The notes: generated by a model from the sequence alone, not told the origin. 64,000 nucleotides of DNA from Rhodobacterales bacterium (GCA_031426185.1 JANPKV010000389.1:29393-93392), one strand, 5' to 3'. Positions 5,412 through 28,019 are shown, counted from the stretch's first letter. A program made the numbers and translations.

Positions 5412-5414
5412 CGC

Positions 5415-11055: not shown

Positions 11056-13134
11056 ATGGCAGAACCGCAGACGCCTGGTAGCTCGGCCTCGGGCAGCGCC
11101 TTCAAAGACATGCAGGTCAAATGCGCGATCATCGAGGAAGGGCTGAGCGAGCTATCCTGTGCCCGCGTCGAATTGCTGTCAAAGGACCGGGCCGTCGCGC
11201 TGAACACTCTGGTGGGCGAACAGCTTGAGGTGACGGTTCCGGGCGGTCACAACTTGGGCCGTCGTTTCATCGGAACCTGCGTTTCGGCCGAATACCTCGG
11301 ACGCTTTCGCGACTGGGGCCGATACCTGGTCGAGGTGCGCCCGAAGCTGTGGTTTCTGACCCAGGCGCGCGAATGTCGCGTCTTTCAGGACAAATCGGTG
11401 CCCGAGATCGTCAAGGACATCTTCGGTGATTACGGGTTTTCGGATTTCTTCACCACAAAACTGTCGGGAAGCTACGTCCAGCGGCCCTTCTGTCTGCAAT
11501 ACCGCGAAACCGATCTCGACTTCATCAGGCGTCTGATGGAGGAGGAAGGCATCTACTTCTTCTTCCAGCACATCGACAAAGGAGAAAGCTTTGTATTGGC
11601 GGATGACGCCTCGGCGCATGAGCCGATAAAGGGCGATGCCATTCTTGAATTCTTCGACGCGGCCGACTCTTTTGACCGCAGCCGGGAGCATCTTTTCGAA
11701 ATCGTCGCAAAGGAAGGCGTCACGACGGGCAAGGTCACCCTGTCGGACTACAACTTTGAAACATCGTCAGTGAAGCTCGCTGGCACGCGGGAGATGAAGA
11801 AGGGCAAACATAAAAAGACGGGAATCGAAATCTATGATTACCCGGGACACTTCCACGATGAGCCCCTGGGCCGGGAGCGCGCGCGTGTCCGGATGGAAGC
11901 CGAAGCGATAAAGCATGTAACCTGGCAGGCTGTCGGCAACATAAGACGTCTCGGGGTGGGGCAAACGTTCCAGATCAAGAACCATCCCCAGACGCAGGGC
12001 GAAAGCGGGTTCCTGTGCACGCGTGCTACCTATTACCTGCAAAACAACCCCGATGGGACCTCGGCGGGTGAGACGCCGAGCGTCATAGGCAAGGGGCTCG
12101 ATTTCGGTCCCGACAACACGGACACCTTCCGCGCCGTGTATGAGATCGTGCCGAAATCCAGCCCGTACCGCGCCCCTCTGCAGACCCCGTGGCCAGAAGT
12201 GGGCGGAATTCACACCGCTGTGGTGGTGGGATCGAAGGGCGAAGAAATCGATACGGACGAATATGGCCGTGTGAAGATCAAGTTCCACTGGGACCGGCGC
12301 GCGGCCAAGGACAATACCGTCAGCGTCTGGGTGCGCACGATGATGCCGTGGACCGGCAAGAACTGGGGCATGATCCATGTGCCCCGCGTCGGCCAGGAGG
12401 TGGTGGTGCAGTTCGAGGAAGGCGACCCGGACCGTCCGATCATCATCGGGATGCTCTATAACGACCAGACGAAGCCGCCCTACGCGCTGCCTGCCAACAA
12501 GACGCAGTCCGGCATCAAGACCAACTCCTCCAAAGATGGCGGTGGCTTCAACGAATTGATGATGGAGGACAACAAGGGCAAGGAACTCGTCCGGTTCAGA
12601 TCAGAACGGGATTACGAGCAGATCGTGCAGAACAATGCCACGATCACCGTCGGTACCCCGACCAAGGAAAAGGGCGACATGACGCTGACCGTGCATCGCA
12701 ACCTGACCGAGACCCTGGAGACCGGCGATCACACCTTTGATGTGAAGACCGGCAGTCAGGTGATCACCATCGAGACCGACAAGACCGAAACCATCAAAGG
12801 CAAATCGACCCAGACAATCACCGGCGACATGGTCGAGACGATCAAGTCTGGCAATTTTACCCGCACGGTCGAAAAGGGCCATGAAAAGACAACCTTGAAG
12901 GTGGGTAATCATACCCTGAAGGCCGACGCTGGGCAGATCACGATCGAAGCACAGCAGTCGATCACCTTGAAAGTCGGGCAAAGCTCCATCGTGATTGATC
13001 AGATGGGGGTCCAGATCAAAGCCATGACGATCGGCATCAACGCAGAGCTGAAACTCGATGCCAAGAGCATGATGACCACTGTGAAGGGCGATGCGATGGT
13101 GACCATCAAGGGCGGCCTCACGATGATCAACTAG
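11056..13134 (+). CDS. vgrG: T6SS spike protein VgrG (TssI), non-evolved (no C-terminal toxin domain)
   Basis: ATG at 11056 is preceded by GAGGGAG. gp27/gp5-like blocks are present (VKIKFHWDR, GMIHVPRVGQEVVVQFEEGDPDRPIIIGMLYN). The C-terminus is a beta-helix repeat ending right after the repeats. Confidence 0.93.
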   Translation: MAEPQTPGSSASGSAFKDMQVKCAIIEEGLSELSCARVELLSKDRAVALNTLVGEQLEVTVPGGHNLGRRFIGTCVSAEYLGRFRDWGRYLVEVRPKLWFLTQARECRVFQDKSVPEIVKDIFGDYGFSDFFTTKLSGSYVQRPFCLQYRETDLDFIRRLMEEEGIYFFFQHIDKGESFVLADDASAHEPIKGDAILEFFDAADSFDRSREHLFEIVAKEGVTTGKVTLSDYNFETSSVKLAGTREMKKGKHKKTGIEIYDYPGHFHDEPLGRERARVRMEAEAIKHVTWQAVGNIRRLGVGQTFQIKNHPQTQGESGFLCTRATYYLQNNPDGTSAGETPSVIGKGLDFGPDNTDTFRAVYEIVPKSSPYRAPLQTPWPEVGGIHTAVVVGSKGEEIDTDEYGRVKIKFHWDRRAAKDNTVSVWVRTMMPWTGKNWGMIHVPRVGQEVVVQFEEGDPDRPIIIGMLYNDQTKPPYALPANKTQSGIKTNSSKDGGGFNELMMEDNKGKELVRFRSERDYEQIVQNNATITVGTPTKEKGDMTLTVHRNLTETLETGDHTFDVKTGSQVITIETDKTETIKGKSTQTITGDMVETIKSGNFTRTVEKGHEKTTLKVGNHTLKADAGQITIEAQQSITLKVGQSSIVIDQMGVQIKAMTIGINAELKLDAKSMMTTVKGDAMVTIKGGLTMIN

Positions 13135-13146
13135 GATGGGACGGTG

Positions 13147-13749
13147 ATGTCGGAACGATTTGCCGATCTGAAGAAGATCCCGAAGCAGCCCGCCGCGCGT
13201 CTGCTCGCGCTTGGCAATGCGCGGCTGCAGTCGCGGCTGAAATCGCCCGCCAGCGCCAGTGTTGCGGATGTCCTGATCGAACTGGAGGCAGCGGATGCGC
13301 TGGTGGACATGCTGCGGCTGCTGTCGGTGGCGCTTCCCGGACGCGAGCGGGCCTGGTGGGCCTGCCTTGCCGCGCGCGATCTGCTGGGCCCGTCGCCCGA
13401 GAAGGTCCCCGCGACGCTGATCGCTGCCGAAAACTGGGTGCGCCAGCCCGGCGATCCGACGCGCGTCGCCCTGCGGGCCGCGCTGGATGCGGTCGAAAGC
13501 GACGACGACGTATCGCTTTGCGCGACATCGGCGATATTTGCGGATGGGACGCTGGGGCCCGGAGAGATGTCGCATCACGCGGCCCCGCCCGGTGCTGCCG
13601 AGACCGCGGCCTTTGGCATGAACGTCATGGCCATGGGCGTGAACAGCCGCGATTTCAGCGCCGAGGCGAACCGACTGATCGACCGCGCGCTGGACATTGC
13701 CCGGGGCGGCAATGGCAGGACCGCCGCCAGCAAAGGTGACCTCTCATGA
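13147..13749 (+). CDS. Hypothetical protein between vgrG and the PAAR gene (family not recognised)
   Basis: ~200 aa, Ala/Leu-rich and probably helical. No signal peptide or TM segment. Its stop overlaps the PAAR start (ATGA at 13746-13749), and codon bias resembles its neighbours. Confidence 0.7.
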   Translation: MSERFADLKKIPKQPAARLLALGNARLQSRLKSPASASVADVLIELEAADALVDMLRLLSVALPGRERAWWACLAARDLLGPSPEKVPATLIAAENWVRQPGDPTRVALRAALDAVESDDDVSLCATSAIFADGTLGPGEMSHHAAPPGAAETAAFGMNVMAMGVNSRDFSAEANRLIDRALDIARGGNGRTAASKGDLS

Positions 13750-14057
13750 GCTTTCCCCAGGCCCGCATGTCCGATCTGCACGTCTGCATGCCGCCCATGC
13801 TGCCCGCACCCACGCCGATCCTGCCGCCCTGCGCCGTGACGGTGATGGTGAACAACCTGTTCGCCGCACGGATGGGTGACATGGCACCGGGCGTTCCGAT
13901 GCCGCCCGCCCTTCCGGTCCCGGTTCCCCATCCGTTCATCAAGGGATCGGCGACGGTGTTGATCATGAATCAGCCCGCACTGCGCGCCATTGTCGACCCG
14001 TGTTCGTGCGGCGGCATGGTGGTGCTCGCGTCGTTCAACGTCTTGACCGGGGGCTGA
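13746..14057 (+). CDS. PAAR-domain spike-tip protein (minimal, no extension)
   Basis: 103 aa. Three PAAR-like repeats are visible: QARMSDLHVC, NNLFAARMGDM, NQPALRAIVDPCSCGG. Confidence 0.8.
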   Translation: MSFPQARMSDLHVCMPPMLPAPTPILPPCAVTVMVNNLFAARMGDMAPGVPMPPALPVPVPHPFIKGSATVLIMNQPALRAIVDPCSCGGMVVLASFNVLTGG

Positions 14058-14063
14058 CGCGGC

Positions 14064-15566
14064 ATGCCGGTGACGTTGCGGTTTCAGTCGACCGGTGTGG
14101 TGCCGGGCAACGCGCAGCCCGTCGTGATGCGCGGCGGGTCGTTGACGATCGGACGTGGCGAAGAGAATGACCTGCACCTGCCGGATCCTGACAAGCTGCT
14201 GTCCAAGCGCCACTGTGTCATCGAGGAACAAGACGACCATGTATCGGTGATCGACCTGTCGACCAACGGGACCTTCCTCAATTACAGCAAGTCGGCGCTC
14301 GGCCCCATTCCCTCGCCGCTGCACGATGGTGACATCCTGACGATGGGCCCCTACGAATTGCTCGTGGAGGTGACGGCGGCCCGTGCGCCAGCCGGAATCC
14401 CCGCTCCGCTGGAGGAAGGGCCCGCGTCGCATGGTCGTGCGGCCGGGGGAATGCTGGGGCTCGACCTGCTGGATGATCCCTCGCACGGGGGCGGCGTGGA
14501 TTTTCTGGACGACCTTCTGGGGGGCGGCGGGCCGAAAGGTCCACCAAGCCTGCAGCGCCCGCAATTGGGCGATGATGGGCTTCTGCCGCCGCTCGGGGTC
14601 GACGACCTGATGGCCCCGTCTGCGGAGACCGGTCCGCCGCAGGGGGCAAGCAGACCCGCCCATTCCCCGTCCGTGCAGGACCACTTCGCCCCGCCCGCCC
14701 GCGTGACCACGGCGATACCCGACGACTGGGATGATCTGCTGGACCCGTTGGCAAATCCTGGCGCGTCAGATCCTTTTGCCGCAGCGCCGCAGGACCTGCC
14801 TTCTGCGGGTGCGGGCAACCCTGTCCACATTCCGGATGATTTTCCGTCGCAGGGGCCAGGCGCTGCCGCAGTCCCCTTTGATCCGCCGCAGCAGTCTCCG
14901 TTCACGACGGTGCCGCCGGTCCAACCCGCCGTCGCGCCGCTTGACATGGTGACACGCCCGACCGCGGCCTCGGTGCCCGTGCCCGACGATGCCGCTGCGC
15001 GGGCGTTTCTCGCGGCGCTTGGCGCGCCGCAGATGGCCATTCCCGCAGAAGACCTGCGGCCGACCCTGTCGCGTCTGGGACAGGTTCTGCGCATCATGGT
15101 TCAGGGCCTTCGCGAAGTGCTGATGACCCGCACTTCGATCAAATCCGAATTCCGCATGCAGCAGACCATGATCACGTCAGGCGGCAACAATCCTCTGAAA
15201 TTCTCGATCAGCCTCGAGCAGGCAATCGAGGCCTTGGTCAAGCCCACCACGCAAGGGTATCTCGACCCGGTCGCGGCGGCCGAGCAGGCGCTGCGTGACA
15301 TCAAGGCCCACGAGGTCGCGATGATGACGGGCATGGAGGCCGCGCTGAAGGGTCTGCTGAAGCGTCTTGATCCGCAGCAGCTGGAAGGAAAACTCGAGAC
15401 AAGCAGCGGGTTTGGTTCTATCCTCAGAGGCAAGGAGGCCCGGTATTGGGACGCTTACCTCAAGATGTACGCAGAAATTTCCGATCAGGCCGAAAACGAT
15501 TTTCACGAGCTGTTCAGCCGAGAGTTCGCCCGCGCCTATCAGGACCAGCTTGACCGACTGAAGTGA
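14064..15566 (+). CDS. fha: T6SS FHA-domain protein Fha/TagH (ImpI)
   Basis: 500 aa. N-terminal FHA domain (GSLTIGRGEENDLHLPD...SKRHCVI...DLSTNGTFLN), a long Pro-rich linker, and a TagH-type C-terminal domain. Confidence 0.9.
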   Translation: MPVTLRFQSTGVVPGNAQPVVMRGGSLTIGRGEENDLHLPDPDKLLSKRHCVIEEQDDHVSVIDLSTNGTFLNYSKSALGPIPSPLHDGDILTMGPYELLVEVTAARAPAGIPAPLEEGPASHGRAAGGMLGLDLLDDPSHGGGVDFLDDLLGGGGPKGPPSLQRPQLGDDGLLPPLGVDDLMAPSAETGPPQGASRPAHSPSVQDHFAPPARVTTAIPDDWDDLLDPLANPGASDPFAAAPQDLPSAGAGNPVHIPDDFPSQGPGAAAVPFDPPQQSPFTTVPPVQPAVAPLDMVTRPTAASVPVPDDAAARAFLAALGAPQMAIPAEDLRPTLSRLGQVLRIMVQGLREVLMTRTSIKSEFRMQQTMITSGGNNPLKFSISLEQAIEALVKPTTQGYLDPVAAAEQALRDIKAHEVAMMTGMEAALKGLLKRLDPQQLEGKLETSSGFGSILRGKEARYWDAYLKMYAEISDQAENDFHELFSREFARAYQDQLDRLK

Positions 15567-15588
15567 TTTATCTGGAAGGATTCTGAGG

Positions 15589-16929
15589 ATGGCCTGGGAC
15601 AGCAAGGTGCTCTGGAGCGAGGGGATGTTCCTTCAGCCTCAGCATTTTCAGCAGGCCGACCGGCACGCCGAAGCGATGCTCAGCGGCGTGGCCCGGCGCA
15701 TCCTGCCTTATGCCTGGGGCGTCAGCGATCTGGACATCGACGCGGATGTCCTCAAGATCGGGCAGTTCGCGCTGAAATCGACCTCGGGTCTGTTTCAGGA
15801 TGGCACGGTCTTTCGCGTGCCCGAAGCCGAAGATCATCCGGCGGCGCTGGAGGTGCCTCCCGGCACAAAGGACTGCGTCGTCTATCTGTCGATCCCGCAG
15901 CGGCGGCAGGGCGCCCTGGACGTCGACATGTCGGGGGCGGCAAATTCGGCGGCCAGGATGCGTCCGTCCGAAATCGAGGTGACGGACACGGTCGGCACGG
16001 GGCGCAGGCCGGTGACGCTTGCCGTGGGCAAGCTGCGCCTGCATTTCGCGTTGCAGGTCGATGATCTGGCCGACCGTCTAGTCATCCCGATTGCGCGGAT
16101 TGTCGAAGTGCGTCCCGACCTGGAGGTCGTGCTGGATAGAGCGTTCATCCCGTCGTGCCTCGACATCCGCGCGGCGCCGCCTCTGGTGGGGCTCTTGGTC
16201 GAACTGGAGGGCCTGCTGGCCCATCGGATGACCGCGCTGGCCGGGCGGATGACCGCAGGTGCATCGGCGCGCGGCGCGGCCGAGATCCAGGACTTTCTGC
16301 TGTTGATGGCGATCAACCGCATGCTGCCCGTGGTGCGCCACCTGTCGATGCTCGAAAACCTGCACCCCGCGCAACTTTACCGGGATTGTGTGGCCATGGC
16401 CGGTGAGTTGGCCACCTTCATGGCGCCCGACAAGCAGGTGCCCCAGTTACCGCCCTATCGGCATCAGGATCTTTCGACCACATTTGTGCCGCCGATCCGT
16501 ATCCTGCGCCGGTATCTGTCGGCGGTGCTGGAACAGACCGCAGTGGCGATCCCGCTGGAGGCGCGCAAGTACGGCATATCGGTGGGAGTGATTGCCGACC
16601 GCAAGTTGATTGGCAATGCAGGCTTTGTGCTGGCCGTCAGCGCCGATGTTCCGACCGAGAACCTGCGGCGGCATTTCGCGGGACAGGCCAAACTCGCCCC
16701 TGTCGAAGAGATACGGCAACTGGTGAACTCGGCACTGCCTGGCATCGCCCTGAACCCATTGCCCGTCGCCCCCCGCCAGATCCCCTACATGGCGAATGTG
16801 GTCTATTTCGAGGTCGCCTCCGACAGTCCGTATTGGTCCGGCATGACCACATCCGGCGGCATCGCCGTGCATGTATCGGGTGAATATCCCGGGTTGAAGA
16901 TGGAGCTTTGGGCGATCCGGCAGGGATAG
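15589..16929 (+). CDS. tssK: T6SS baseplate protein TssK (ImpJ)
   Basis: 446 aa. VLWSEGMFLQPQHFQQADRH is the hallmark TssK N-terminus. Confidence 0.95.
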   Translation: MAWDSKVLWSEGMFLQPQHFQQADRHAEAMLSGVARRILPYAWGVSDLDIDADVLKIGQFALKSTSGLFQDGTVFRVPEAEDHPAALEVPPGTKDCVVYLSIPQRRQGALDVDMSGAANSAARMRPSEIEVTDTVGTGRRPVTLAVGKLRLHFALQVDDLADRLVIPIARIVEVRPDLEVVLDRAFIPSCLDIRAAPPLVGLLVELEGLLAHRMTALAGRMTAGASARGAAEIQDFLLLMAINRMLPVVRHLSMLENLHPAQLYRDCVAMAGELATFMAPDKQVPQLPPYRHQDLSTTFVPPIRILRRYLSAVLEQTAVAIPLEARKYGISVGVIADRKLIGNAGFVLAVSADVPTENLRRHFAGQAKLAPVEEIRQLVNSALPGIALNPLPVAPRQIPYMANVVYFEVASDSPYWSGMTTSGGIAVHVSGEYPGLKMELWAIRQG

Positions 16930-16938
16930 GAGACATAG

Positions 16939-18306
16939 ATGCCCGATGAAGACCCCTTTGCCGAGCAGGACGACACCGAAAAGACGGTGATCCGGCCCAA
17001 CCCGGCCGGCCGCAGGGCCGGGGTTGCGGCCCCTGCACCCCGCAGCACCGCCCCGGCCTCTGAGCCAGTAGCGGCCCCGGCCGCCAAACGCAGCGTCGAG
17101 CCGTCGATCGAGGCCGGGTTGACGGGGATGAACCCCTTGAACGCGGCGGCGGCAACGCTGTTTTCGCTGGTCAGCCGCATTCGCAACCGCGCACAGCATC
17201 TGGACCCCGAGGCGCTCCGCCGTTCGGTTGTCGCCGAAGTGCGGGGGTTCGAGGCGCGCGCCTTGCAGGCGGGCATCGATCCCCAAGCCGTCAAGGTTGC
17301 CCGCTATGGCATCTGCGCGACGCTGGACGATGTCGTGCTGAACACGCCCTGGGGCGGCACCTCGGTCTGGGCCCAGCAAAGCATGGTCGGAACCTTCCAC
17401 CGCGAAACGGTCGGTGGCGACCGGTTCTATGATCTTCTCGCGCGGCTGGAGCAGGACCCCGGTCGCAACATCGACCTGCTGGAATTTCTTTACATGTGCC
17501 TCTCGCTTGGTTTCGAGGGGCGTCTGCGCGTGGAACAGGGGGGTGCCGACAAGCATCTGAACGTCCGTGCCGGCCTTGCGCGGATCATCCGGGCCCAACG
17601 CGGCGAGGTGGAACAGTCCTTGTCTCCACATTGGCCGGGCGTGCAAAAGCCGCATCGCGCCCTGTCGGCGTGGAAGCCGTTCTGGATCGCGGTCGGGGCG
17701 GTTGCCGCACTTTTAGGCACGGGCTTTGTCGGGCTCAGCTGGGCGCTGTCAAACCAGACCGAGCGTCTGTTGGGCCAGATCAGCGCGCTGGACCCCGGCG
17801 GCGTGGCCACCCTGGAACGTCGCGCGCCGCCCGTTGTGCCGAAACCGACCGTGGATGACGAGGCGCAGCTGAAGCGCGTTTCCGGGTTCCTTGAAAAAGA
17901 GATTGAAGAGAAACTGGTGACGGTGTTTCAGGATGCCAACACGATCACGATCCGGCTGGCCGGGTCGGGCATGTTCGGGTCGGGGTCCGACAGTCTGAAA
18001 GAGGAGTTCCAGGTGCCGCTGCAACGCGTGGCGGCGGCGCTGAAAGAAACCACGGGGCCCATCATCGTGGTCGGCCATTCCGACAACCAGCCGATCAAGA
18101 CAGCCAGATTTCCGTCGAATATGCACCTGTCGTTGGCCCGGGCCGAAGCGGTCACGCGAACGCTGGCAGAGCTGGTGGAGGACAAGTCGCGGCTGTCTGC
18201 CGAAGGTCAGGCAGACAAGCATCCGATCGTAAGCAATGACACTGCCGAAGGGCGCGCCCAAAACCGGCGCATCGAGATCGTGCTGGTGCGGGAAAGGGCC
18301 CAATGA
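16939..18306 (+). CDS. tssL: T6SS membrane-complex protein TssL (DotU) fused to a C-terminal OmpA/MotB peptidoglycan-binding domain
   Basis: 455 aa. DotU core (ICATLDDVVLNTPWG, YMCLSLGFEGR), one TM segment, then an OmpA-like end (VVGHSDNQP...LSLARAEAV...NRRIEIVL). Confidence 0.92.
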   Translation: MPDEDPFAEQDDTEKTVIRPNPAGRRAGVAAPAPRSTAPASEPVAAPAAKRSVEPSIEAGLTGMNPLNAAAATLFSLVSRIRNRAQHLDPEALRRSVVAEVRGFEARALQAGIDPQAVKVARYGICATLDDVVLNTPWGGTSVWAQQSMVGTFHRETVGGDRFYDLLARLEQDPGRNIDLLEFLYMCLSLGFEGRLRVEQGGADKHLNVRAGLARIIRAQRGEVEQSLSPHWPGVQKPHRALSAWKPFWIAVGAVAALLGTGFVGLSWALSNQTERLLGQISALDPGGVATLERRAPPVVPKPTVDDEAQLKRVSGFLEKEIEEKLVTVFQDANTITIRLAGSGMFGSGSDSLKEEFQVPLQRVAAALKETTGPIIVVGHSDNQPIKTARFPSNMHLSLARAEAVTRTLAELVEDKSRLSAEGQADKHPIVSNDTAEGRAQNRRIEIVLVRERAQ

Positions 18307-21300
18307 TTCGTAACCTGCTGCGCGCCATGTTTTCAGGCATCGGCATCACGGTGATGGTGGCAGTGATCCTGTCCCTGTGCCTGTGGTTCCTCGGCGGTTT
18401 CCTCGGATTCGGCGACGCCCGTCCCTTTGACAGCGTGCTGGGACGCCTGGTCGGTCTGGCCGTGTTGTGGATCGTGGCATTGCTGGTCGTGCTGGTGATC
18501 CTGTTGACCGCGAAAAATCGCGATCAGGCCCTGGCCGAAGACATCGTCACCGCCGCTGATCCCGTCACCTCGGCCGATGACCAGATCGGCGACGAGCTGG
18601 CCGAGATGCGCAGCAAGCTAAAGACCGCCCTTGGAAAGTTGCGCAAGTCCAAGGGGGGAAGGCGAAATCTCTATGAGCTGCCCTGGTATGTCATCATCGG
18701 GCCGCCGGGGGCGGGCAAGACCACCGCGATCGTCAACTCGGGCCTGCAGTTTCCGCTGGCCGACGAGATGGGGGCAGGGGCAATCGGTGGTGTCGGCGGG
18801 ACGCGCAACTGCGACTGGTGGTTCACCAACAACGCGGTTCTGGTCGATACCGCCGGGCGCTATACGACGCAGGAAAGCGATGCCTCGGCCGACAATTCGG
18901 CCTGGCTCGGATTTCTGGCACTGCTGAAAAAGCACCGTAGCCGGCAGCCCATCAACGGGGCAGTGGTGGCGATCAGCCTGTCGGACCTGTCGATGCAGGA
19001 TGAAACCACGCAGAAGGCGCATGCGGTTGCCGTTCGCCGCCGCCTGCACGAGCTGCGCGAAAAGCTGGGGGTGCGTTTTCCGGTCTATGTGCTTTTCACA
19101 AAGGCTGATCTGCTTGCCGGGTTCACCGAATTTTTCGACGGGCTAGGCAAGGAACAGCGCGAGCAGGTCTGGGGCTTTACCCTGCCACTGCCGAAAGGCC
19201 GCACCGAAGCCTCGGCCGTGTCGGCCTTTGAAGACGAGTTCGGTCAGCTCACGTCGCGGCTGAATACCCTGTCTCTGGAGCGGATCCAGACCGAGACCGA
19301 CCCGCAACGCCGCAGCCTGATCGCCAGCTTTCCCGCGCAGGTCGCATCGGTGCGTCAAGTGGCGCACGACTTCCTGACGGAAGTGTTCCAAGAAAACCGC
19401 TTTGAACACCGCCAGCTTCTGCGGGGCGTCTATCTCACCTCCGGCACCCAGGAGGGCACGCCGATCGACCGGCTGATGATGGGAATGGCGCGGACCTTCG
19501 GGATCGGGCGGCAGGCCATCGGGTCGGGCCGGGGGACGGGGCGCAGCTATTTCCTCACCAACCTGTTTGAAAAGGTGATGTTCCCCGAGGCCGGACTGGT
19601 ATCAGCCGATGACAAGGTGGAGCGCCGCTATCGGTGGACGCAGCGCTTTGCAGTGGCGGCGACCGTGCTGATTGCCATTGGCATGGGGACGTTCTGGGTG
19701 CGCAGTTACCTGGGAAATTCCGCGCTCGCTGATCAGACCGCGTCACAGGTCGCGGCCTTTCAGGCCGAGGCCGCGCTGATCCCCGCGAGCCCGATCAGTG
19801 ACAGCGATCTGTTGCTGGCGGTGCCCGCCCTCGACATCTTGCGCGCCATGCCGGGCGCGGACGGGACCGAAGCCGAACGGCAAGCTGGCCTGGGCTGGGG
19901 CCTTTTTCAGGGCGGGGTGATCGCCAACGAGGCGCGGCTGGCCTATCGGGCTGCGCTCAACCAGCATTTTCTGCCGCGCCTGCTGCTGGGGCAGGAGGAT
20001 CTGATGCAGGCCAGCATCAATGATCCCGATGCGCTGTTCCAGGCGCTGAAGATCTACCTGATGCTTGGCCTGGCGGGCCCGATGGACAAGGCGCTGGTCA
20101 CCGAATTCCTGGCCGCGGAATGGGAACGGTCCTATGGCGGTGCGGCCCGCGAAGACCTGCGGGCGAGCCTGCTGCAGCATCTTGATGCGCTGTTGTCCCA
20201 GCCGATGGAGGCAATCGCGCTGAACAACGATCTGGTGACGCAGGTGCAGGGCATCCTGACCCAGATGCCGCAGTCTCAACGTGTCTATAACGGCATCATC
20301 AACTCGGAACAGGCCAAGGCCCTGCCGCAGTGGCGGTTGACCGATATCGGTGGCCCCGCCATTTCCCGCGCGATCGTGCGGTCATCTGGCAAGCCGTTGA
20401 ACGAGGGGATCGAGGGGATTTTCACTTATGCCGGGTTCCACGACGTGTTTCTGGAAGAGGCGCTGAAAGTCACGACCCAGATCCAGCGCGACAGTTTCGT
20501 TCTGGGCGCGGCGGCAACGGAGCAGTCGGACGCGGCCCTTCTGGCGATAAGCCGTGACGTGCTGGCGCTCTACTTCAACGATTTTGTTGCACGCTATGAC
20601 CAGATGCTGGGGGATATCGACATCATCCCGATGGAATCGCTGGCCCATTCGGTCGAGGTGACGAACGTGTTGTCCGGGCCTGCATCGCCCATCGTCAGCG
20701 TTCTGACAGCCATCGCCGACGAGACCCGTCTAACCGAAAACCGCGAGCCTGCAGCCGACCCAGCAGCCGATCCCGCCGCAGACCCTGCCGCCGATAATGC
20801 AGCCGGGGCGGTTGCCGATGCGACCCTTGCCGTCGTGGGTGCCCGGCTGCGGCGCGGGCTGTCTCCAGAGGCGCGGATTTTCAAGGACGCCCTCGAGGCG
20901 TCATCCGCGTCGGAGTCCGGTGGCGATCCGCGTCCACTGGGGTCCTATGTCGAGGATCGTTTCAAGCCGTTGCACGAGATGGTGCTGCGCACGGACGGCC
21001 AACCGTCGCAACTCGACGGCTTGATCGACGTGTTGGTAGAGGTCAACCAGGAACTGAACAAGCTGAGCTTTGCGGGCGGTGTCGGCAATCCTCAGGGGGA
21101 AAACACGGCGGTGCAGCGGCTGACCGAAACCGCCTCACGCCTGCCCGGCCCGATCCAGCGCTGGGCTGCGCAGATCACCACGGGGTCGTCGGGGATCGCC
21201 GCCGATGGCACCCGGTCGGGCATCAATGCGCGTTGGCAGTCCACCGTTCTGCCGTTCTGCGAACAGGCCACTGCGAATGTCTATCCGTTTGACCGACGCG

Positions 21301-21917
21301 CCAAGGCAGACATCGCCATGGCCGATTTTACCAAACTCTTCGCACCGGCAGGTCTGATCGACACCTTCTTTACCGAGAATCTGGCGAAGTTCGTCGACCA
21401 GCGCAGCCGCCCCTGGACCTTCAAGAAGGTCAACGATGCCGATCTTGGCATCTCTCCGGCGGTGCTGGAACAGATGCAGTTCGCTGCCGAAATTCGCGAT
21501 GCGTTCTTTGCCGGGGGACCTGCCCCACGCGTGCAGTTCCAGATCACGCCCGAGGCGCTTGATCCCAAGGCTGACGGCATCACGCTGGAAATCGACGGTC
21601 AGCCGGTGACGTTCAGGCACAAGGATGGCCAGCCCCGCCCGGGTGCGATCGTCTGGCCAGGGTCCGTGGGCCTGGCGCGGGTGTCGTTCGATCCGTCTTC
21701 GCAGGGCTCGGAAAGCACGCTGTCGCGCGATGGGCCCTGGGCCTGGTATCGCCTGCTTGATGCGGCGGAAATCCGCAAGACCAACGTGTCGGACCGCAGT
21801 CGGCTGATCTTCAACGTAGGGGGGCGGATCGTGATCTTTCAGATGCAGTCGGGGTCGGTCCTGAACCCGTTCAATCTGCCCGCCTTGCAAAAGTTTGCCT
21901 GTCCGAAGTCGTTCTGA
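18303..21917 (+). CDS. tssM: T6SS membrane-complex protein TssM (IcmF)
   Basis: 1204 aa. N-terminal TM segments, Walker A GPPGAGKTT, and a long periplasmic IcmF-type domain. ATGA overlap with tssL. Confidence 0.95.
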   Translation: MIRNLLRAMFSGIGITVMVAVILSLCLWFLGGFLGFGDARPFDSVLGRLVGLAVLWIVALLVVLVILLTAKNRDQALAEDIVTAADPVTSADDQIGDELAEMRSKLKTALGKLRKSKGGRRNLYELPWYVIIGPPGAGKTTAIVNSGLQFPLADEMGAGAIGGVGGTRNCDWWFTNNAVLVDTAGRYTTQESDASADNSAWLGFLALLKKHRSRQPINGAVVAISLSDLSMQDETTQKAHAVAVRRRLHELREKLGVRFPVYVLFTKADLLAGFTEFFDGLGKEQREQVWGFTLPLPKGRTEASAVSAFEDEFGQLTSRLNTLSLERIQTETDPQRRSLIASFPAQVASVRQVAHDFLTEVFQENRFEHRQLLRGVYLTSGTQEGTPIDRLMMGMARTFGIGRQAIGSGRGTGRSYFLTNLFEKVMFPEAGLVSADDKVERRYRWTQRFAVAATVLIAIGMGTFWVRSYLGNSALADQTASQVAAFQAEAALIPASPISDSDLLLAVPALDILRAMPGADGTEAERQAGLGWGLFQGGVIANEARLAYRAALNQHFLPRLLLGQEDLMQASINDPDALFQALKIYLMLGLAGPMDKALVTEFLAAEWERSYGGAAREDLRASLLQHLDALLSQPMEAIALNNDLVTQVQGILTQMPQSQRVYNGIINSEQAKALPQWRLTDIGGPAISRAIVRSSGKPLNEGIEGIFTYAGFHDVFLEEALKVTTQIQRDSFVLGAAATEQSDAALLAISRDVLALYFNDFVARYDQMLGDIDIIPMESLAHSVEVTNVLSGPASPIVSVLTAIADETRLTENREPAADPAADPAADPAADNAAGAVADATLAVVGARLRRGLSPEARIFKDALEASSASESGGDPRPLGSYVEDRFKPLHEMVLRTDGQPSQLDGLIDVLVEVNQELNKLSFAGGVGNPQGENTAVQRLTETASRLPGPIQRWAAQITTGSSGIAADGTRSGINARWQSTVLPFCEQATANVYPFDRRAKADIAMADFTKLFAPAGLIDTFFTENLAKFVDQRSRPWTFKKVNDADLGISPAVLEQMQFAAEIRDAFFAGGPAPRVQFQITPEALDPKADGITLEIDGQPVTFRHKDGQPRPGAIVWPGSVGLARVSFDPSSQGSESTLSRDGPWAWYRLLDAAEIRKTNVSDRSRLIFNVGGRIVIFQMQSGSVLNPFNLPALQKFACPKSF
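20748..20795 (+). repeat. Four imperfect 12-nt tandem units encoding (PAAD)x4 inside tssM
   Basis: cctgcagccgac / ccagcagccgat / cccgccgcagac / cctgccgccgat encode PAADPAADPAADPAAD. Confidence 0.8.
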
Positions 21918-22618
21918 TGGAAAGACGGATGTCCGGATTTGGCGCCTTCGGAAAGATCCCTGCCCTGGGGGACTTCTTCCAGCTTGATCCGCCGCCTGGC
22001 TTTGTCGGTCCTTGGGATCGCTGGCTGCAGGAGGGGTTGCTGGCATCACGGGCCATACTTGCCGAGCGTTGGCAGAACTGCTTTTTGTCAGCGCCGATCT
22101 GGCGGTTTACCCTTGCGGCTGATCTCGCAGGTCCACAGGCGGTGCAAGGCGTGCTGATGGCATCGGTGGACCGTTCGGGTCGGCAGTTTCCGCTGACGCT
22201 GGTGGGCTCGTTGCGCGGAGCGACGCCGCCTGATGTTTTGGCTGCCCATCGGGCCGCGGAACATAGTTTTTCCGATCTGGAAGCCATCGCGCTGGAGGCG
22301 CTGGAGGACAGCATGACCCAGGCAAGCCTTGCAGAGCGGTTGCGGGCCATTCCCGTCGTAGAAGCCCGGCGCGCGCCGCCTGTCACCAAGGCTGCCTCCG
22401 CCATGGCCTTGCGCGGCAGGCATGACCTCGCCGCCGCGCTCTCGGCGCGGTTGGCGGGGGGCGGTTATCCAAGACCGTCGATCTGGACGGCAATGCTGCG
22501 AGAGGGTGAATTGTTGTATGTCCAAGACGGCTTGCCATCACCGTCCCGCATGGCGGATCTCTACGACAGCGATGCGGCCCTCTGGCAAGATGCCCTGACG
22601 GAGGGAGCACTGCCGTGA
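21917..22618 (+). CDS. tagF: T6SS post-translational repressor TagF (ImpM/DUF2094)
   Basis: 233 aa. GFGAFGKIPALGDFF is the TagF signature N-terminus. 1-nt TGATG overlap with tssM. Confidence 0.88.
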   Translation: MERRMSGFGAFGKIPALGDFFQLDPPPGFVGPWDRWLQEGLLASRAILAERWQNCFLSAPIWRFTLAADLAGPQAVQGVLMASVDRSGRQFPLTLVGSLRGATPPDVLAAHRAAEHSFSDLEAIALEALEDSMTQASLAERLRAIPVVEARRAPPVTKAASAMALRGRHDLAAALSARLAGGGYPRPSIWTAMLREGELLYVQDGLPSPSRMADLYDSDAALWQDALTEGALP

Positions 22619-23328
22619 CCCATTCGCGTTACTGCGCCGTGACCCATGTCGGTCGGGTGCGCAGCGTAAACGAGGACAGCATCCTCGCGCTACCGGACCT
22701 GAATATCTGGGCGGTTTCCGACGGGATGGGTGGCCACGCGGCAGGCGATTTCGCCAGCCAGACCGTTATCGAGGCGATTGCCGGTCTGCCGCCCGACCAG
22801 GAGCCGAAGGACCTGATGTCTTCGCTGCGCGCCGCCATCCTGTCCGCCCACCAGACGATCCAGGCAGAGGCCGCCCGCCGTAGCGCCGGGATCGTGGGCG
22901 CAACCGTGGTGACCCTGATGCTGGCGAATGGCCATTTCGTGGCATTTTGGGCGGGCGATAGCCGGCTGTACCGGCTTCGCGACGGCCAGATCGAGATGCT
23001 GACGACGGATCATTCGATGGTGGCCGAACTCGTACTGGCCGGGCTGATCGACTGGGATGAGGCCGAACATCATCCGCAATCCAACGCGATCACCCGCGCC
23101 GTGGGCGTCGGGGACGCATTGGAGATCGACAAGGTGCGCGGCGAGGTTCGGCCCGGTGACCGCTTTCTGCTTTGTTCCGACGGCCTGACGAAATATGCGG
23201 GCTTTCAGGCGATCCGGCAAACGTTGGCAGGCGCGCCGATCGAAACGGTCTGTGACAGCTTGCTGCAGATGGCCCTTCACGGCGGCGGGGCTGACAACAT
23301 TTCGGTGATTGTGGTCGACGCAGTCTGA
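22615..23328 (+). CDS. pppA: PP2C-family Ser/Thr phosphatase PppA
   Basis: 237 aa. VSDGMGGHAAGDFAS, LLCSDGL and GGADNISVIVV are PP2C motifs. GTGA overlap with tagF. Confidence 0.9.
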   Translation: MTHSRYCAVTHVGRVRSVNEDSILALPDLNIWAVSDGMGGHAAGDFASQTVIEAIAGLPPDQEPKDLMSSLRAAILSAHQTIQAEAARRSAGIVGATVVTLMLANGHFVAFWAGDSRLYRLRDGQIEMLTTDHSMVAELVLAGLIDWDEAEHHPQSNAITRAVGVGDALEIDKVRGEVRPGDRFLLCSDGLTKYAGFQAIRQTLAGAPIETVCDSLLQMALHGGGADNISVIVVDAV

Positions 23329-23332
23329 TCGG

Positions 23333-25474
23333 TCAGGGCCGTTGTGTCGTCAGGATCGAACTGTCGAGCGACGTCACCGGCGAGGTGAGCGTTTCAAGTG
23401 CTGCAGCGTAGCCCCAGGCCGATTCAGTCGTTGGGCGCAAGGAGTCAAAGATCGGCTGGGCGGAGTGGAGCACCATCACCCTTGTCTTGCCCAGTGTCGT
23501 CTCATCCACGACAAAAGCAAGTCCGTCTTTCTCCTTTGCCTCGGCGATGCTGTAGGCCACCCGCACCGAGACCGGCCCGCTGCGCCCGTCGCGCAGGGCC
23601 TTCACGCTGTTGTCTGCGCGTTTCAGGTTTGGCAGTAGATGGAACACGTTGCCTGACACATCCAGCGCCGAGACATAGATGTAGCCATCCACCACATTCG
23701 CAGGAATGACCACGTCGATCACCGGGTTTTCGCCGACAACATAAGTTCCACCGGGGTTCGCGTCAGGCCGGTCGCCATAACCGAAAGCGATCTCAAAGCC
23801 GCCTCCCGGTGCCGTGGGAAGGACCGCGTCGAACAGACACAAGGTGGGGTTCAGCACCGCGGTTTCCACGCGCAGTTCCCTTGGACCGATCACTGCGCGC
23901 AATGCATCTTCCAAGGCCACCTGCGTGGCACTGTCCGCAACATGACCCGTCACGAACACGGTGCTGTCGACCGGATATCCGGCAGCGGAGGGCGGCGCGA
24001 GCAGCAGCTCGCCACAGTCTGCCATCTCGATCAGAATGGGCCGCAGCATCGCCGTAGTCAGGAACCGGGGCCCAAGGTCAATCCGGACGGTCCCGTTCAA
24101 CGCCGCGGGCAGGGGCAATTCCATCAGGCGTTGCTGCTCGTCCCGGTTCAGTGTCAGGCCGGTGACTTCGACCGAATTGCCGCTGGAGGCCACACGCCAC
24201 TCCGGCAGTTGGGAAACGGCATCGATCAGTGACAGCACGTCGGGGCCCCAGCTGTCTGCAATATCACCCGTCGCAATCGACAGGTCCGCCGCGCCGCCGA
24301 TGTCGGTCATCTTGCCGGTCAGAGCCTGTTGAATGTCCTCGGACGGAACGACGCCGCTGGCCTGGGCCGGGCTGTCGGCCTTGCGTTCGACGACCAAGAC
24401 AAATGGGTCGGCCACCGGATATTTCGGCCCGAACAGTCCGGCGAAATACGCGCCTCCGCCGCCCAGGGCCGCCGCTGCCACGACCAGCGCTGCAAACAGG
24501 CCGCCGCGCCCAGACCTTGCCGGGGCTGCTGGCACGGGCTTCGACGCGGTCTCGGGCCTTGCCGACGGGGCCGTGCGTGATGGCTGCGTGGTTGAGCGCG
24601 GCACGATGACGGTGCGGTCCGCATCGCCCGAGGCAGCCGGCACATGGCCACGGCGGATCGTCTCCAGCACCGTCGCCGCATTGGGCAAGCGCTTGGCCGG
24701 ATCGGGCTGCGTCATCTGGTCAATCAGAGATTTCAGCGGCTCGGGCACGCCTGACGTGTCAAGCGGCTGCGACTTGCGCGTGACAACCTCCATCGGGTTG
24801 TTGCCCACTTGGGGTGGTTTGCCCCGGAATGTCGCCAACAAAAGCGCCCCGAGCGCATAGATGTCGGCCCGCTCGTCGGTTTTGCCCGCCAACTGTTCCG
24901 GCGCGGCATAGGCATACTTGCCCGCAAATTCGTTGCCCACGATGGTCTCGGCACCAGGATTGGAATCCTTGGCAATGCCAAAATCGATGATGACGGCCTC
25001 GGCCGGATTTCCGTTCCGCAGGATGATGTTGTCGGGAGACAGGTCACGGTGGACAATCTTCTTGGCATGGGCGGCAGCCAGCGCATCGCTGACACGACCC
25101 GCCACGATCATCAGGTCCTCGGCCGACATGCCCCCCGATTTCAGTTTGACGTCCAGCCCCGGACCCTCGACGTAGTCCATGATCAGATAGACCGTCCCGT
25201 CATCGGTGCGCTGGTTGTCGAAATACCGGACGATCCCGTCATGCCGGATTTCTCGGATGTCCTCCTCGCGCCGCATGAGCGAGAGATAATCCTCGTTGCG
25301 CGAAAACTCCGACCGCAACGCCTTGAGCGCCACGACCCGCCCCGAGATTTCGCTGCGGGCGCGATACACCTCTGACGTGCCGCCGCGACCGAGGGCGGCC
25401 TCGATGCGGTAGGTGTTGTTCAGAACATCGCCCGGCTGAAAGATCGGATCATGCAGGGAAGGGGACCCGCTCAT
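23333..25474 (-). CDS. ppkA: Transmembrane Hanks-type Ser/Thr kinase PpkA with an atypical periplasmic domain
   Basis: 713 aa. Kinase motifs VALKAL, HRDLSPDNIIL, DFGIAK, YAAPEQ. Pro-rich linker, then one TM segment (GGLFAALVVAAAALGGGGAYFAGLF). The ~350-aa periplasmic region ends in a DUF4384-like block (DGYIYVSALDVSGNVFHLLPN). Convergent with pppA, with 4 nt between the stops. Confidence 0.9.
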   Translation of the reverse strand: MSGSPSLHDPIFQPGDVLNNTYRIEAALGRGGTSEVYRARSEISGRVVALKALRSEFSRNEDYLSLMRREEDIREIRHDGIVRYFDNQRTDDGTVYLIMDYVEGPGLDVKLKSGGMSAEDLMIVAGRVSDALAAAHAKKIVHRDLSPDNIILRNGNPAEAVIIDFGIAKDSNPGAETIVGNEFAGKYAYAAPEQLAGKTDERADIYALGALLLATFRGKPPQVGNNPMEVVTRKSQPLDTSGVPEPLKSLIDQMTQPDPAKRLPNAATVLETIRRGHVPAASGDADRTVIVPRSTTQPSRTAPSARPETASKPVPAAPARSGRGGLFAALVVAAAALGGGGAYFAGLFGPKYPVADPFVLVVERKADSPAQASGVVPSEDIQQALTGKMTDIGGAADLSIATGDIADSWGPDVLSLIDAVSQLPEWRVASSGNSVEVTGLTLNRDEQQRLMELPLPAALNGTVRIDLGPRFLTTAMLRPILIEMADCGELLLAPPSAAGYPVDSTVFVTGHVADSATQVALEDALRAVIGPRELRVETAVLNPTLCLFDAVLPTAPGGGFEIAFGYGDRPDANPGGTYVVGENPVIDVVIPANVVDGYIYVSALDVSGNVFHLLPNLKRADNSVKALRDGRSGPVSVRVAYSIAEAKEKDGLAFVVDETTLGKTRVMVLHSAQPIFDSLRPTTESAWGYAAALETLTSPVTSLDSSILTTQRP

Positions 25475-25520
25475 GCTGAGGGTTCCATGCTGGCGGCTTC
25501 ATGACGGGCGTTCATGCGGG

Positions 25521-26066
25521 TCAGCTGAGCGCCTGAAACTCGACCCGCCGATTTACATCCGCGCGGGGATTGGCTGCGTCAAACGGATACCGGGCGCCCA
25601 CACCCACCGCTTCCATCTTTTCTGCCGGTATTCCACAATCGGTTTCAAGGTGACGCTTCACCTCTTCGGCGCGCAGTTTCGACAAGGATTCGTTGTAGCT
25701 GTCGGATCCCGAGCTGTCGGTATGCCCGACGATGCGGAACATCTGCACGTCCGTCGTTTTCATGACATTGCACAGCGCCACCAGCAAAGGCTTCTGGTCC
25801 GGACGCAGTGCGGAACTGTCGAAATCGAAACTGATGTTGATGTTCACCTGCTCGTCCACCGGCAATTCGGCGATCACGACCTGTGCGGTGGGCGCGGCAA
25901 CCGGTTCGGTCGTCGGCACGATCGCCAGGCCGCGCGTTTTCTGCTTGGCGAACGCGGCGGCAATCTCTGCCTCCGTCATCCCCTCAGTGGTCTGGGCCGA
26001 CACCGGCGCAATAGTTTGAACAACTATGATGGCGATGGCAGAAAGCCACAGATCAATTCGTTTCAT
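25521..26066 (-). CDS. Periplasmic OmpA/MotB-like peptidoglycan-binding protein, apparently co-transcribed with ppkA
   Basis: 181 aa. Signal peptide (…APVSA-QT) with no lipobox. OmpA_C motifs are present (FDFDSSAL, IVGHTDSSGSDSYNESLSKLRAEEV, NRRVEF). Lies 46 nt upstream of ppkA. Confidence 0.85.
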   Translation of the reverse strand: MKRIDLWLSAIAIIVVQTIAPVSAQTTEGMTEAEIAAAFAKQKTRGLAIVPTTEPVAAPTAQVVIAELPVDEQVNINISFDFDSSALRPDQKPLLVALCNVMKTTDVQMFRIVGHTDSSGSDSYNESLSKLRAEEVKRHLETDCGIPAEKMEAVGVGARYPFDAANPRADVNRRVEFQALS

Positions 26067-26223
26067 TGTAGGCTTTCACTTTCCTGGCTTAATTTCCATG
26101 ACAACCAAGGTACACCGAATTGCGCATCTCTGCCAGCATCTTTGGCGCCTCTCGTGTTGACTCGATGCATGGGTTCGCGCACCTTTTCCGTTGAGTTTCC
26201 TAGCACAGGCCAAGCTTTGTCAG

Positions 26224-27084
26224 ATGCGCAGTGTGCGATTGATCATCATTGCCATCATTGCGCTGACCATTCCGCTGGTATGGCTGGTCGTGCAAAGTCT
26301 GCTCCCCGAAGGCGGCATCACCGACGCGGGCAGCGGGTCGGGCATCGACAGCGGCGCCAGGATCGAGATCGAGGTCCTGCGCCAGCAGGTGGAGGGGCTG
26401 CAGGAACAGATTGTCGCGCTGGAACAGGAGGTCGCCGCGATCGGATCAGGCAGCGCGTCCTATGACGTTGTGGTGCCGGATGTTACGGACGGCGCCGCCG
26501 GGGCTCCCGCCTTCAACGACGGAGAAAACGCGATCGGGGATGCCTATGCCCAGGTGGTTCTGATCGCGAACCGCCGCACCGTGAACAAGTCCATCTCGGT
26601 GGCCTCGCCCAGCTTTCTGGAAGGTTTTCTCGGCCGCCCGCGCGAGGTTCTCAGCGACGACTGCGAGCCGATGACCAATCCCAAGCTGAAGGAACTGCTG
26701 ATCGTCGAGCAGGTCGGTCCGATCAAGGTGCAGATGCTGCGCCCGGCGCTCGACAGCATGAAACGGGTGTTCGAAAAGGTAGAGGCGGCTGACCCTGACC
26801 TTTACGCCCGCATCAGCACCGCAGGCTCGTTATGCGTGCGCCGCATCCGCGGCACGACGGACCGCACCTCCACGCATTCGTTTGGCCTGGCGGTGGATCT
26901 GAACATCGACGGCCAGCTTGATACCTTTACCGACGGCAAGACGCAGTTGGGACTAACGATCCTTGCGGACTTTTTCATGGCAGAAGGCTGGATCTGGGGA
27001 GCAGGTTTCGGGCGCGAGGATTCCATGCATTTCGAGGTCAGCCGTCAACAACTCGAGGCGTGGCGCGCGGAAGGGAAGATCTGA
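26224..27084 (+). CDS. Membrane-anchored M15/LAS-family peptidoglycan peptidase (VanY/TagX-like)
   Basis: ATG at 26224 gives MRSVRLIIIAIIALTIPLVWLVV (N-terminal TM segment). A heptad-like stretch follows (IEVLRQQVEGLQEQIVALEQEV). The C-terminus has LAS motifs STHSFGLAVDL and EDSMHFE. Confidence 0.8.
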   Translation: MRSVRLIIIAIIALTIPLVWLVVQSLLPEGGITDAGSGSGIDSGARIEIEVLRQQVEGLQEQIVALEQEVAAIGSGSASYDVVVPDVTDGAAGAPAFNDGENAIGDAYAQVVLIANRRTVNKSISVASPSFLEGFLGRPREVLSDDCEPMTNPKLKELLIVEQVGPIKVQMLRPALDSMKRVFEKVEAADPDLYARISTAGSLCVRRIRGTTDRTSTHSFGLAVDLNIDGQLDTFTDGKTQLGLTILADFFMAEGWIWGAGFGREDSMHFEVSRQQLEAWRAEGKI

Positions 27085-27411: not shown

Positions 27412-27537
27412 ATGGCGCAGCAAAATCTGCTGGTCGATAGGGCCAGAAAGTTTGCCAGTTCATTCGGAAAACTTTATCATGCCGGCTACCTGTTGCGAAT
27501 TGTTGGCGGTCTAAGCTTCGGGAGATCGATATCATGA
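27412..27537 (+). CDS. Candidate 41-codon micro-ORF translationally coupled to the Tlde1-like gene
   Basis: AGGAG lies 5 nt upstream of the ATG. Product is MAQQNLLVDRARKFASSFGKLYHAGYLLRIVGGLSFGRSIS. Its TGA overlaps the next ATG (ATGA at 27534-27537). It is below the 60-aa track cutoff and has rare-codon usage, so it is uncertain. Confidence 0.25.
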   Translation: MAQQNLLVDRARKFASSFGKLYHAGYLLRIVGGLSFGRSIS

Positions 27538-28019
27538 AGTCTACGGCACCCGATCTTTTCTACAACATCGTCGAAGAGCGTTTGTTCGGTAGCCTCGATT
27601 CGAAAAACTTCGATGCCCATGCCGTCTCAGGCGGGCGCGCCGGATCTAAGACACCCGGTGCCGTGAACCAGGTCTTGGCCAACAATCCTTTTCTGACTGA
27701 CGTGAAACTCGGCGCCGGTCACCCAGGTGGCCCGCTGCCTATGGCGCTGTACACGCTCAGTTGTCATGAGACGCGGCCAAACTGGATACGGCTCAATCCC
27801 GACGACCCTCTGGATCTGGGCGATCGGGCGGGATTCGCCATCCACGGGAGAGGCCAGCGTGGCAGTGATGGCTGTATCGTGCCGTTTGATTTCAACGTTG
27901 TTCTGCGCCTGTACACTTTGACCAGAGCGCGCGCGGTGGCGGGGCGCGCGGCGCCGTCGCTTCAGGTTTTCGCGACGGGGGATCTTGGGCGGTTCGAGAA
28001 GATGGCAAGGCTTGCCTGA
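27534..28019 (+). CDS. DUF2778/Tlde1-like L,D-transpeptidase-fold protein (candidate T6SS peptidoglycan-targeting effector)
   Basis: 161 aa with no signal peptide. GPLPMALYTL...WIRLNP...GFAIHGRGQRGSDGCIVP places His and Cys 10 residues apart, as in the Tlde1 catalytic pair as I recall it. Third-position GC is lower than in the core genes. Confidence 0.7.
   Translation: MKSTAPDLFYNIVEERLFGSLDSKNFDAHAVSGGRAGSKTPGAVNQVLANNPFLTDVKLGAGHPGGPLPMALYTLSCHETRPNWIRLNPDDPLDLGDRAGFAIHGRGQRGSDGCIVPFDFNVVLRLYTLTRARAVAGRAAPSLQVFATGDLGRFEKMARLA

Follow-up and report, generated by a model that had tools for sequence, protein, structure and literature searches.

The DNA analysed here is a 64 kb stretch of a 99 kb metagenome contig assigned to a Rhodobacterales bacterium (GCA_031426185.1, JANPKV010000389.1, nt 29393–93392); it is referred to below as the window and is numbered from its first nucleotide. 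It carries a complete H1-like (i3) type VI secretion system (T6SS) of the roseobacter 'T6SS1' type (nt 343–27084), recognised from a listing of open reading frames (ORFs) and from Pfam and NCBIfam scans. Of the canonical TssJLM envelope complex, the cluster encodes TssM (IcmF-type) and TssL (DotU-type), and there is no TssJ (PF12790/TIGR03352) beside tssK. We consider it highly probable that this is an intact, TssJ-less roseobacter i3 system with a TagX-like peptidase and a wall-anchored TssLM complex, in which the wall-directed accessories are ancestral and TssJ has been cleanly lost. In the mechanism proposed, a membrane-anchored M15 peptidase acting like TagX of Acinetobacter would cut peptide stems locally and so allow the TssLM complex to pass the sacculus, after which the OmpA/MotB-like domain of TssL and a separate OmpA-domain protein would anchor the complex to the wall. 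These accessories would be ancestral to the alphaproteobacterial i3 systems, with TssJ lost in the lineage of the window. A clean loss is indicated by the presence of TssJ in the nearest relatives to either side, namely the Rhizobium-type clusters and the H1 system of Pseudomonas aeruginosa. A first-pass annotation of this DNA had reported the absence of TssJ and of any lipoprotein together with the three peptidoglycan-directed modules, all of which are real and conserved; its interpretation, that the modules replace TssJ, did not hold up when related clusters were compared.

The tagH–tssK junction and the search for TssJ

The coordinates of the fha (tagH) stop and the tssK start place the two genes 22 nt apart, as first annotated. 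A six-frame scan of 1–28 kb for signal peptides and lipoboxes returned nothing credible, the sole matches being out-of-frame ORFs inside tagF, and this agrees with the earlier statement that no ORF with a lipobox occurs in the region. The genes are packed too tightly to hide another. A hidden Markov model (HMM) was built from seven diverse TssJ proteins (Rhizobium, Rhodobacter, Sulfitobacter, Mesorhizobium, Ralstonia, Vibrio and Cronobacter), and positive controls were recovered with E-values of 1e-57 to 1e-62. Neither the 64 kb of the window nor related loci without TssJ gave a match below E = 1 with this model, and no TssJ match was found in approximately 230 kb of plasmid and chromosome DNA bearing the cluster type of the window. 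For the contig itself, the absence of TssJ holds for the 64 kb covered by the window.

The usual position of tssJ was assessed by scanning GTDB, with one genome per species, using Rhizobium-type TssJ sequence patterns, which a divergent TssJ would escape. Among the best 80 of 196 relatives returned for the TssJ query, tssJ was found directly before tssK in every genome (80/80), and the empty slot in the window therefore represents a real deletion rather than an alternative gene order. The Rhodobacterales among these 80 were Sulfitobacter, Lentibacter, Phaeovulum, Litorisediminicola, three species of Ruegeria and metagenome-assembled genomes, and neither Leisingera nor Phaeobacter was represented. 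A clean tagH–tssK junction is also present in three other plasmid lineages with the gene order of the window, where the gaps are 28–44 nt. The nearest annotated DNA consists of Roseobacteraceae plasmids, and the TssJ-less order of the window recurs on plasmids of Phaeobacter sp. G2, Leisingera aquaemixtae and Rhodobacteraceae bacterium SC52, with the kinase (minus strand), OmpA (minus) and M15 (plus) genes following the PP2C gene.

The lack of tssJ is a published trait of this clade, since the roseobacter T6SS1 clusters examined by Suria et al. 2022 (Leisingera, Ruegeria and Tateyamaria; PMC9515649), which were placed next to the H1-T6SS, carry every core gene but tssJ. More broadly, TssJ-less T6SSs are common, and TssJ is absent in 27.5% of 1096 non-Acinetobacter genomes that have tssB and tssM (PMC10564176).

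A lipoprotein conserved elsewhere in this cluster type was considered and rejected, as only SC52 has one next to the M15 gene. The SC52 protein (208 aa, lipobox VSAC) is Gly-rich with a coiled coil, and is encoded directly downstream of the M15 gene (L010, nt 42799–43425, minus strand); the same position is occupied by a TetR gene in the window and by a gene for a non-lipoprotein in Phaeobacter. The extended left arm did not contain a lipoprotein gene.

Peptidoglycan-directed proteins with and without TssJ

Searching by tblastn with the M15 protein led to related clusters of a second type, carried by Rhizobium phaseoli, Rhodobacter sp. CZR27 and Sulfitobacter sp. S223. These sister clusters have the order tagH-tssJ-tssK-tssL-tssM, with an annotated tssJ, and they also encode a DotU+OmpA TssL, the OmpA protein and the M15 protein. 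It follows that the wall-directed modules predate the loss of TssJ and are not specific to it, and their presence irrespective of TssJ leaves the statement that they stand in its place unsupported.

In the window, TssL is the long ('evolved') form, and the fusion to an OmpA/MotB peptidoglycan-binding domain reported in the first-pass annotation is evident in its domain structure. A DotU domain (residues 66–268; PF09850, E 4.9e-66) is followed by a transmembrane (TM) segment and an OmpA/MotB-like domain (residues 345–443; PF00691), and the protein scores 159.1 bits against TIGR03350 (cutoff 139.8). The separate periplasmic OmpA-like protein (181 aa) has the N-terminus MKRIDLWLSAIAIIVVQTIAPVSA followed by QTTE, which is a signal peptidase I signal (cleavage between VSA and Q) without a lipobox cysteine, so that the protein is not a lipoprotein. 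With its signal peptide, its C-terminal OmpA domain and its place within a T6SS cluster, it has the features of the TagN type. Motifs read as TD..G....N..LS..RA and NRR(V/I)E occur in both the TssL domain and the OmpA protein, and are typical of peptidoglycan-binding OmpA-like domains. Orthologues of the OmpA protein are 46–60% identical across both cluster types, with and without tssJ, and those of the TssJ-bearing sisters (46–49%) share its N-terminal QK..TRGL motif and a pair of cysteines. In the OmpA-family accessory of Ralstonia, the OmpA domain alone can be aligned, and a BON domain is present in addition.

The M15 protein comprises one predicted TM helix at the N-terminus (residues 2–26), a coiled coil or long helix (44–74) and a C-terminal catalytic domain (about 115–286) that matches PF13539 (VanY-like; E 2.4e-10, 41.3 bits, cutoff 25), an organisation that fits its initial description as a membrane-anchored M15 peptidase. 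The LAS motifs SxHxxGxAxD and DSMHFE are present, and the active site is intact, with H218, D225, D266 and H269, as metal ligands and general base, invariant in 17 sequences from both cluster types. An AlphaFold model of the protein has a predicted local distance difference test score (pLDDT) of 73 overall and above 85 over most of the catalytic domain. The best fold matches of that domain (Hedgehog-N, VanXY and LdcB) represent the LAS fold, while searching PDB by sequence yielded coiled-coil noise only. Relatives number 1486, and the best 120 clusters are 62–100% identical, those with an organism name all belonging to Rhodobacterales. Identity to the proteins of R. phaseoli, Rhodobacter sp. 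CZR27 and Sulfitobacter sp. S223 is 33–40% from end to end, and the position of the gene beside the OmpA and PP2C genes is kept across both cluster types, as is the divergent OmpA/M15 pairing. Judged by these alignments with the sister-cluster proteins, the M15 protein is the orthologue of TagY, with TagY of Sinorhizobium fredii USDA257 being matched by description. Each of the two accessories also has an invariant pair of cysteines (C99 and C144 in the OmpA protein, C147 and C204 in the M15 protein), a pattern consistent with periplasmic disulfides.

The M15 protein shares its Pfam family, and by prediction its membrane-anchored layout, with TagX of Acinetobacter, whose catalytic domain is periplasmic and which cleaves L-Ala-D-Glu bonds and is needed for Hcp export (PMC5061870). 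The M15 protein of the window very likely works like TagX, yet, judged by the TagX-type M15 protein of Ralstonia, is not an orthologue of it. At the N-terminus it has one predicted hydrophobic helix (2–26) as against the two predicted TM segments of TagX (PMC5061870). Peptidoglycan cleavage is also the activity of many T6SS effectors, 'a peptidase' in the Leisingera cluster was flagged as effector-like in a BLAST screen (PMC9515649), and a possible Tlde1-like gene adjoins the M15 gene. It is nevertheless highly improbable that the M15 protein serves as a secreted effector against bacteria, alone or within an effector–immunity pair, rather than as an assembly factor, given its predicted membrane anchor and coiled coil, its fixed position beside the OmpA and PP2C genes across two cluster types that have diverged to 33–40% identity, the lack of any PAAR, VgrG or adaptor linkage, and the lack of an adjacent immunity-like gene.

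The three peptidoglycan-directed proteins are plausibly part of the envelope complex. The first-pass annotation went further and proposed that they substitute for TssJ, so that the cell wall, and not an outer-membrane lipoprotein, would hold the complex in place. A long-form TssL and a wall hydrolase do occur together in all the TssJ-less Rhodobacterales clusters examined (M15 in the cluster type of the window; M23 in a Sagittula/Paracoccus type, with an SLT domain added in Sagittula), and Acinetobacter provides the precedent of a TssJ-less system that depends on TagX (PMC5061870). The proposal is improbable, however, since orthologues of all three modules occur in clusters with tssJ. The same coexistence is seen further afield: the T6SS cluster of Ralstonia combines TssJ and a short TssL with an OmpA-family gene and an M15/PF13539 gene, the last two taken to be its TagN and TagX, and S. 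fredii USDA257 has TssJ together with proteins of this kind named TagN and TagY (PMC11872809). In Acinetobacter, the compensators proposed for the lack of TssJ are TsmK and a Gly/Ser linker in TssM (GS-linker), not TagN and TagX (PMC10564176). Neither was found in the window: every ORF of the cluster was assigned to a family other than that of TsmK (a pseudo-ketoacyl-synthase), and alignment to the sister TssM proteins revealed no Gly/Ser linker before the C-terminal helix of TssM. As the modules coexist with TssJ elsewhere, its outer-membrane role is not taken by these three alone, although the wall-directed accessories may have made its loss tolerable. An altered TssM C-terminus was also considered as compensation and rejected, because the last ~240 residues of TssM align without indels to those of TssJ-bearing sisters (32–43% identity) and the C-terminal domain is complete.

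Several points weigh against the interpretation of the locus as an intact TssJ-less system with a TagX-like peptidase and wall anchoring. No function has been described for any roseobacter T6SS of this type, and none has been shown to fire (PMC9515649). The M15 protein aligns with the TagX-type M15 protein of Ralstonia at an hhalign E-value of 0.004 and a probability of 8%, with the catalytic motifs in register, and Ralstonia is not represented among the tblastn matches listed for the M15 protein (60 of 170 records). The OmpA protein may matter little, given that Acinetobacter can do without TagN entirely or almost entirely (PMC13584744, PMC10564176). Lastly, a divergent or relocated TssJ elsewhere in the genome might serve this system. 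The DNA examined spans 64 kb of a single contig, the published survey of clusters (HAMBURGER) reported in-cluster genes only, and TssM retains in full the C-terminal domain that is the TssJ-binding part in canonical systems. We regard a TssJ of this kind as distinctly unlikely in view of the uniform placement of tssJ beside tssK in the 80 best TssJ-pattern relatives (of 196), the absence of Leisingera and Phaeobacter from these, and the negative HMM search of the ~230 kb bearing this cluster type.

Both halves of the original observation, the missing tssJ and the types of accessory, have already been described for close relatives, and the locus is a further example. The view that Acinetobacter alone combines such accessories with a TssJ-less system has been overtaken by the publication of TssJ-less roseobacter clusters (PMC9515649). 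With the replacement logic failing as well, the value of the original finding is modest.

An ExbBD/DUF4384 module beside tssA

The left edge of the window leads into a set of genes that may be of greater interest. Translation of the first 132 nt (minus strand) matches nt 1007–1447 of a metagenome scaffold (L004) that is 98.7% identical to the window and continues from a small protein into ExbB and ExbD (module at L004 2–1447). Most of the module lies to the left of the window, and these 132 nt alone are inside. In full, the order is a 146-aa secreted small protein, ExbB, ExbD, ExbD, a DUF4384 protein, a periplasmic caspase-family protein and a YceI-OmpA protein. The DUF4384 protein has a TM segment, a Pro/Ala-rich stretch and the DUF4384 domain, which is a TonB-like layout. 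The module is divergent from and adjoins tssA on the Phaeobacter and Leisingera plasmids, on the chromosomes of Sedimentitalea nanhaiensis and Falsihalocynthiibacter arcticus, in Aquicoccus and on another metagenome contig, and was seen in more than eight genera (e.g. L003 14099–20394, L105–L108). In SC52 it has been relocated to the opposite side of the cluster and is still linked.

A second TssJ-less T6SS type of Rhodobacterales is found in Sagittula sp. P11 (L099–L101) and Paracoccus alcaliphilus (L103). It has a long-form TssL, a protein of 2117–3039 aa encoded beside tssK, an M23 wall hydrolase (plus SLT in Sagittula) and a DUF1036 gene, and a distant version of the module is embedded in it. 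In this version the small protein and ExbB are joined by two ExbD-type proteins and a long protein that has no Pfam match, and genes for the caspase and the YceI-OmpA protein are missing from it.

The module could supply the TssJ-less lineage with an envelope partner of its own, acting either as a sensor upstream of PpkA, in the manner of TagQRST, or as a link to the outer membrane driven by the proton motive force; this is a serious possibility, if one that falls short of being probable. It adjoins tssA in the relatives of the window and stays linked in SC52, its distant version accompanies the second TssJ-less cluster type, and no ExbBD module was found in the 40–48 kb viewed around three TssJ-bearing clusters. 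The periplasmic region of PpkA (residues 577–689) is homologous to the DUF4384 domain of the module (BLASTP E 5e-7), and no TagQRST genes are present in the cluster of the window. On the other side, the small protein is modelled by AlphaFold (pLDDT 77) as a generic Ig-like sandwich with IrmA as the best PDB match, a member of the small-protein family stands ahead of an ordinary ExbBD-TonB iron-uptake operon in Tateyamaria, the module genes encode no lipoprotein, and the case for the module rests on gene linkage. The small signal-peptide protein upstream of tssA was also considered as a hidden, non-lipidated TssJ and rejected, since its model is this generic Ig-like sandwich, there is no TssJ structure among the 50 fold matches listed for it, and it is not matched by the TssJ HMM.

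Still more tentatively, the TssJ-less T6SSs of Rhodobacterales might depend on a dedicated ExbB-ExbD-ExbD motor with a TonB-like DUF4384 protein, accompanied in the cluster type of the window by the small beta-sandwich protein, the caspase and the YceI-OmpA protein, through which the proton motive force would either signal envelope events to PpkA or couple TssLM to the outer membrane. Because the DUF4384 domain is shared with PpkA, a sensory role upstream of this kinase is more plausible than a structural substitute for TssJ. No description of ExbB/ExbD in this accessory role in T6SSs emerged from a search of the literature, which returned generic virulence-gene lists only. The module is a lead rather than a finding, and its unreported linkage to the T6SS is the most interesting thread to emerge from the locus. 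How a TssJ-less system gets to and through the outer membrane has been solved partly, for Acinetobacter only. The lineage of the window offers a natural comparison set, made up of alphaproteobacterial clusters that are close relatives and have the same wall-binding and wall-cutting accessories whether or not they carry tssJ, and the differences that narrow the search are the clean deletion of tssJ and the linked ExbBD/TonB-like module.

Gene order and comparison with known systems

The features of the locus are listed in Table 1. All cluster genes are on the plus strand except ppkA and the OmpA-domain gene. The Pfam matches of the core and tip genes in nt 343–14057 are all full-length and above the curated cut-offs. 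The island ends at about 28.1 kb, where genes for a TetR regulator and an ABC transporter begin.

Table 1. Annotated features of the T6SS locus (nucleotide positions in the window).
Feature	Position (nt)	Strand	Evidence
First ~44 codons of a ~146-aa signal-peptide protein, head of the divergent ExbB-ExbD-ExbD-DUF4384 module	1–132	-	scaffold match
tssA (343–1356), then tssB, tssC, hcp, tagJ/impE, tssE, tssF, tssG, clpV, vgrG, DUF6931, PAAR	343–14057	+	Pfam
fha/tagH (FHA domain and T6SS_FHA_C)	14064–15566	+	Pfam
fha–tssK junction, 22 nt; slot held by tssJ in sister clusters	15567–15588		coordinates
tssK	15589–16929	+	PF05936, E 3.5e-146
tssL, long form	16939–18306	+	Pfam, TIGR03350
tssM, 1204 aa	18303–21917	+	TIGR03348, 1195 bits
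tagF and PP2C phosphatase (PppA)	21917–23328	+	Pfam
ppkA, Ser/Thr kinase with periplasmic DUF4384-like region (residues 577–689)	23333–25474	-	Pfam and BLASTP
OmpA-domain protein, TagN type, co-oriented with ppkA	25521–26066	-	Pfam, signal peptide, orthologues in both cluster types
Divergent intergenic region, 157 bp, between the OmpA-ppkA unit and the M15 gene	26067–26223		coordinates
M15_4/LAS zinc peptidase, predicted to be inner-membrane-anchored	26224–27084	+	PF13539, TM, alignment, model
Candidate Tlde1-like effector, weakly supported, possibly part of the island	27534–28019	+	PF10908, E 0.056, below cutoff

In the window, vgrG comes immediately after clpV (nt 11013–11032). The Leisingera and Phaeobacter plasmids have a hypothetical gene, an ion transporter and a long sheath fusion, TssCL, between these two genes (L001 5909–12070, L002 1754–8246). 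The DUF6931 protein, encoded between vgrG and PAAR (nt 13144–13749, plus strand), keeps this position in related plasmids and may serve as an adaptor or chaperone of the tip. The 161-aa candidate ORF that closely follows the M15 gene contains the motif FAIHGRGQRGSDGCIVP and has a sub-threshold match to the Pfam Tlde1 family; it may specify a T6SS effector with an L,D-transpeptidase fold, and no immunity gene for it was identified.

The H1-T6SS of P. aeruginosa has the order tssA-B-C-hcp-tagJ-tssE-F-G-clpV-vgrG, together with fha-(tssJ)-tssK-L-M-tagF-pppA-ppkA, and we take the gene order of the window to be this order minus tssJ. Unlike the window, the H1 system has TssJ1 and the TagQRST sensor and lacks the OmpA and M15 accessories; the window in turn lacks TagQRST and has a PpkA with a DUF4384-like periplasmic domain. 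The TssBC proteins of roseobacter T6SS1 are closest to those of H1 (PMC9515649). The Sci-1 system of enteroaggregative Escherichia coli is a more distant parallel, in which a wall-binding domain and a wall-cutting enzyme (TagL and the recruited MltE) are both needed for the membrane complex (PMC13584744). It differs in having TssJ, in carrying its binding domain on TagL and in relying on a housekeeping lytic transglycosylase whose gene lies elsewhere.

The Acinetobacter T6SS resembles that of the window in having no TssJ and in encoding within the cluster an OmpA-domain accessory and a PF13539 peptidase, which in the window is predicted to be membrane-anchored as TagX is (PMC5061870, PMC10564176), whereas the window lacks TsmK and the TssM GS-linker, and its TssL carries an OmpA domain of its own. 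The M15 protein of the window is at most remotely related to the TagX-type M15 protein of Ralstonia, and is likened to TagX of Acinetobacter by description. The published roseobacter T6SS1 clusters share with the window the gene order, the TagJ, FHA and PAAR accessories, the placement in group 3 (H1-like) and the lack of tssJ (PMC9515649), and the Leisingera and Phaeobacter plasmid examples have the OmpA/M15 gene pair as in the window. The window differs from them in being without the TssCL fusion and the ion-transporter insert, and neither the wall-directed accessories nor the ExbBD module were discussed in that study. The alphaproteobacterial group-3 clusters (S. fredii USDA257, PMC11872809; R. 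phaseoli, CZR27 and S223) have in common with the window the long-form TssL, orthologues of the OmpA protein and of the divergently encoded M15 protein, PpkA, PP2C and TagF, and are distinguished from it by a tssJ between tagH and tssK, an additional ImcF-related protein, TagM, and the lack of tagJ.

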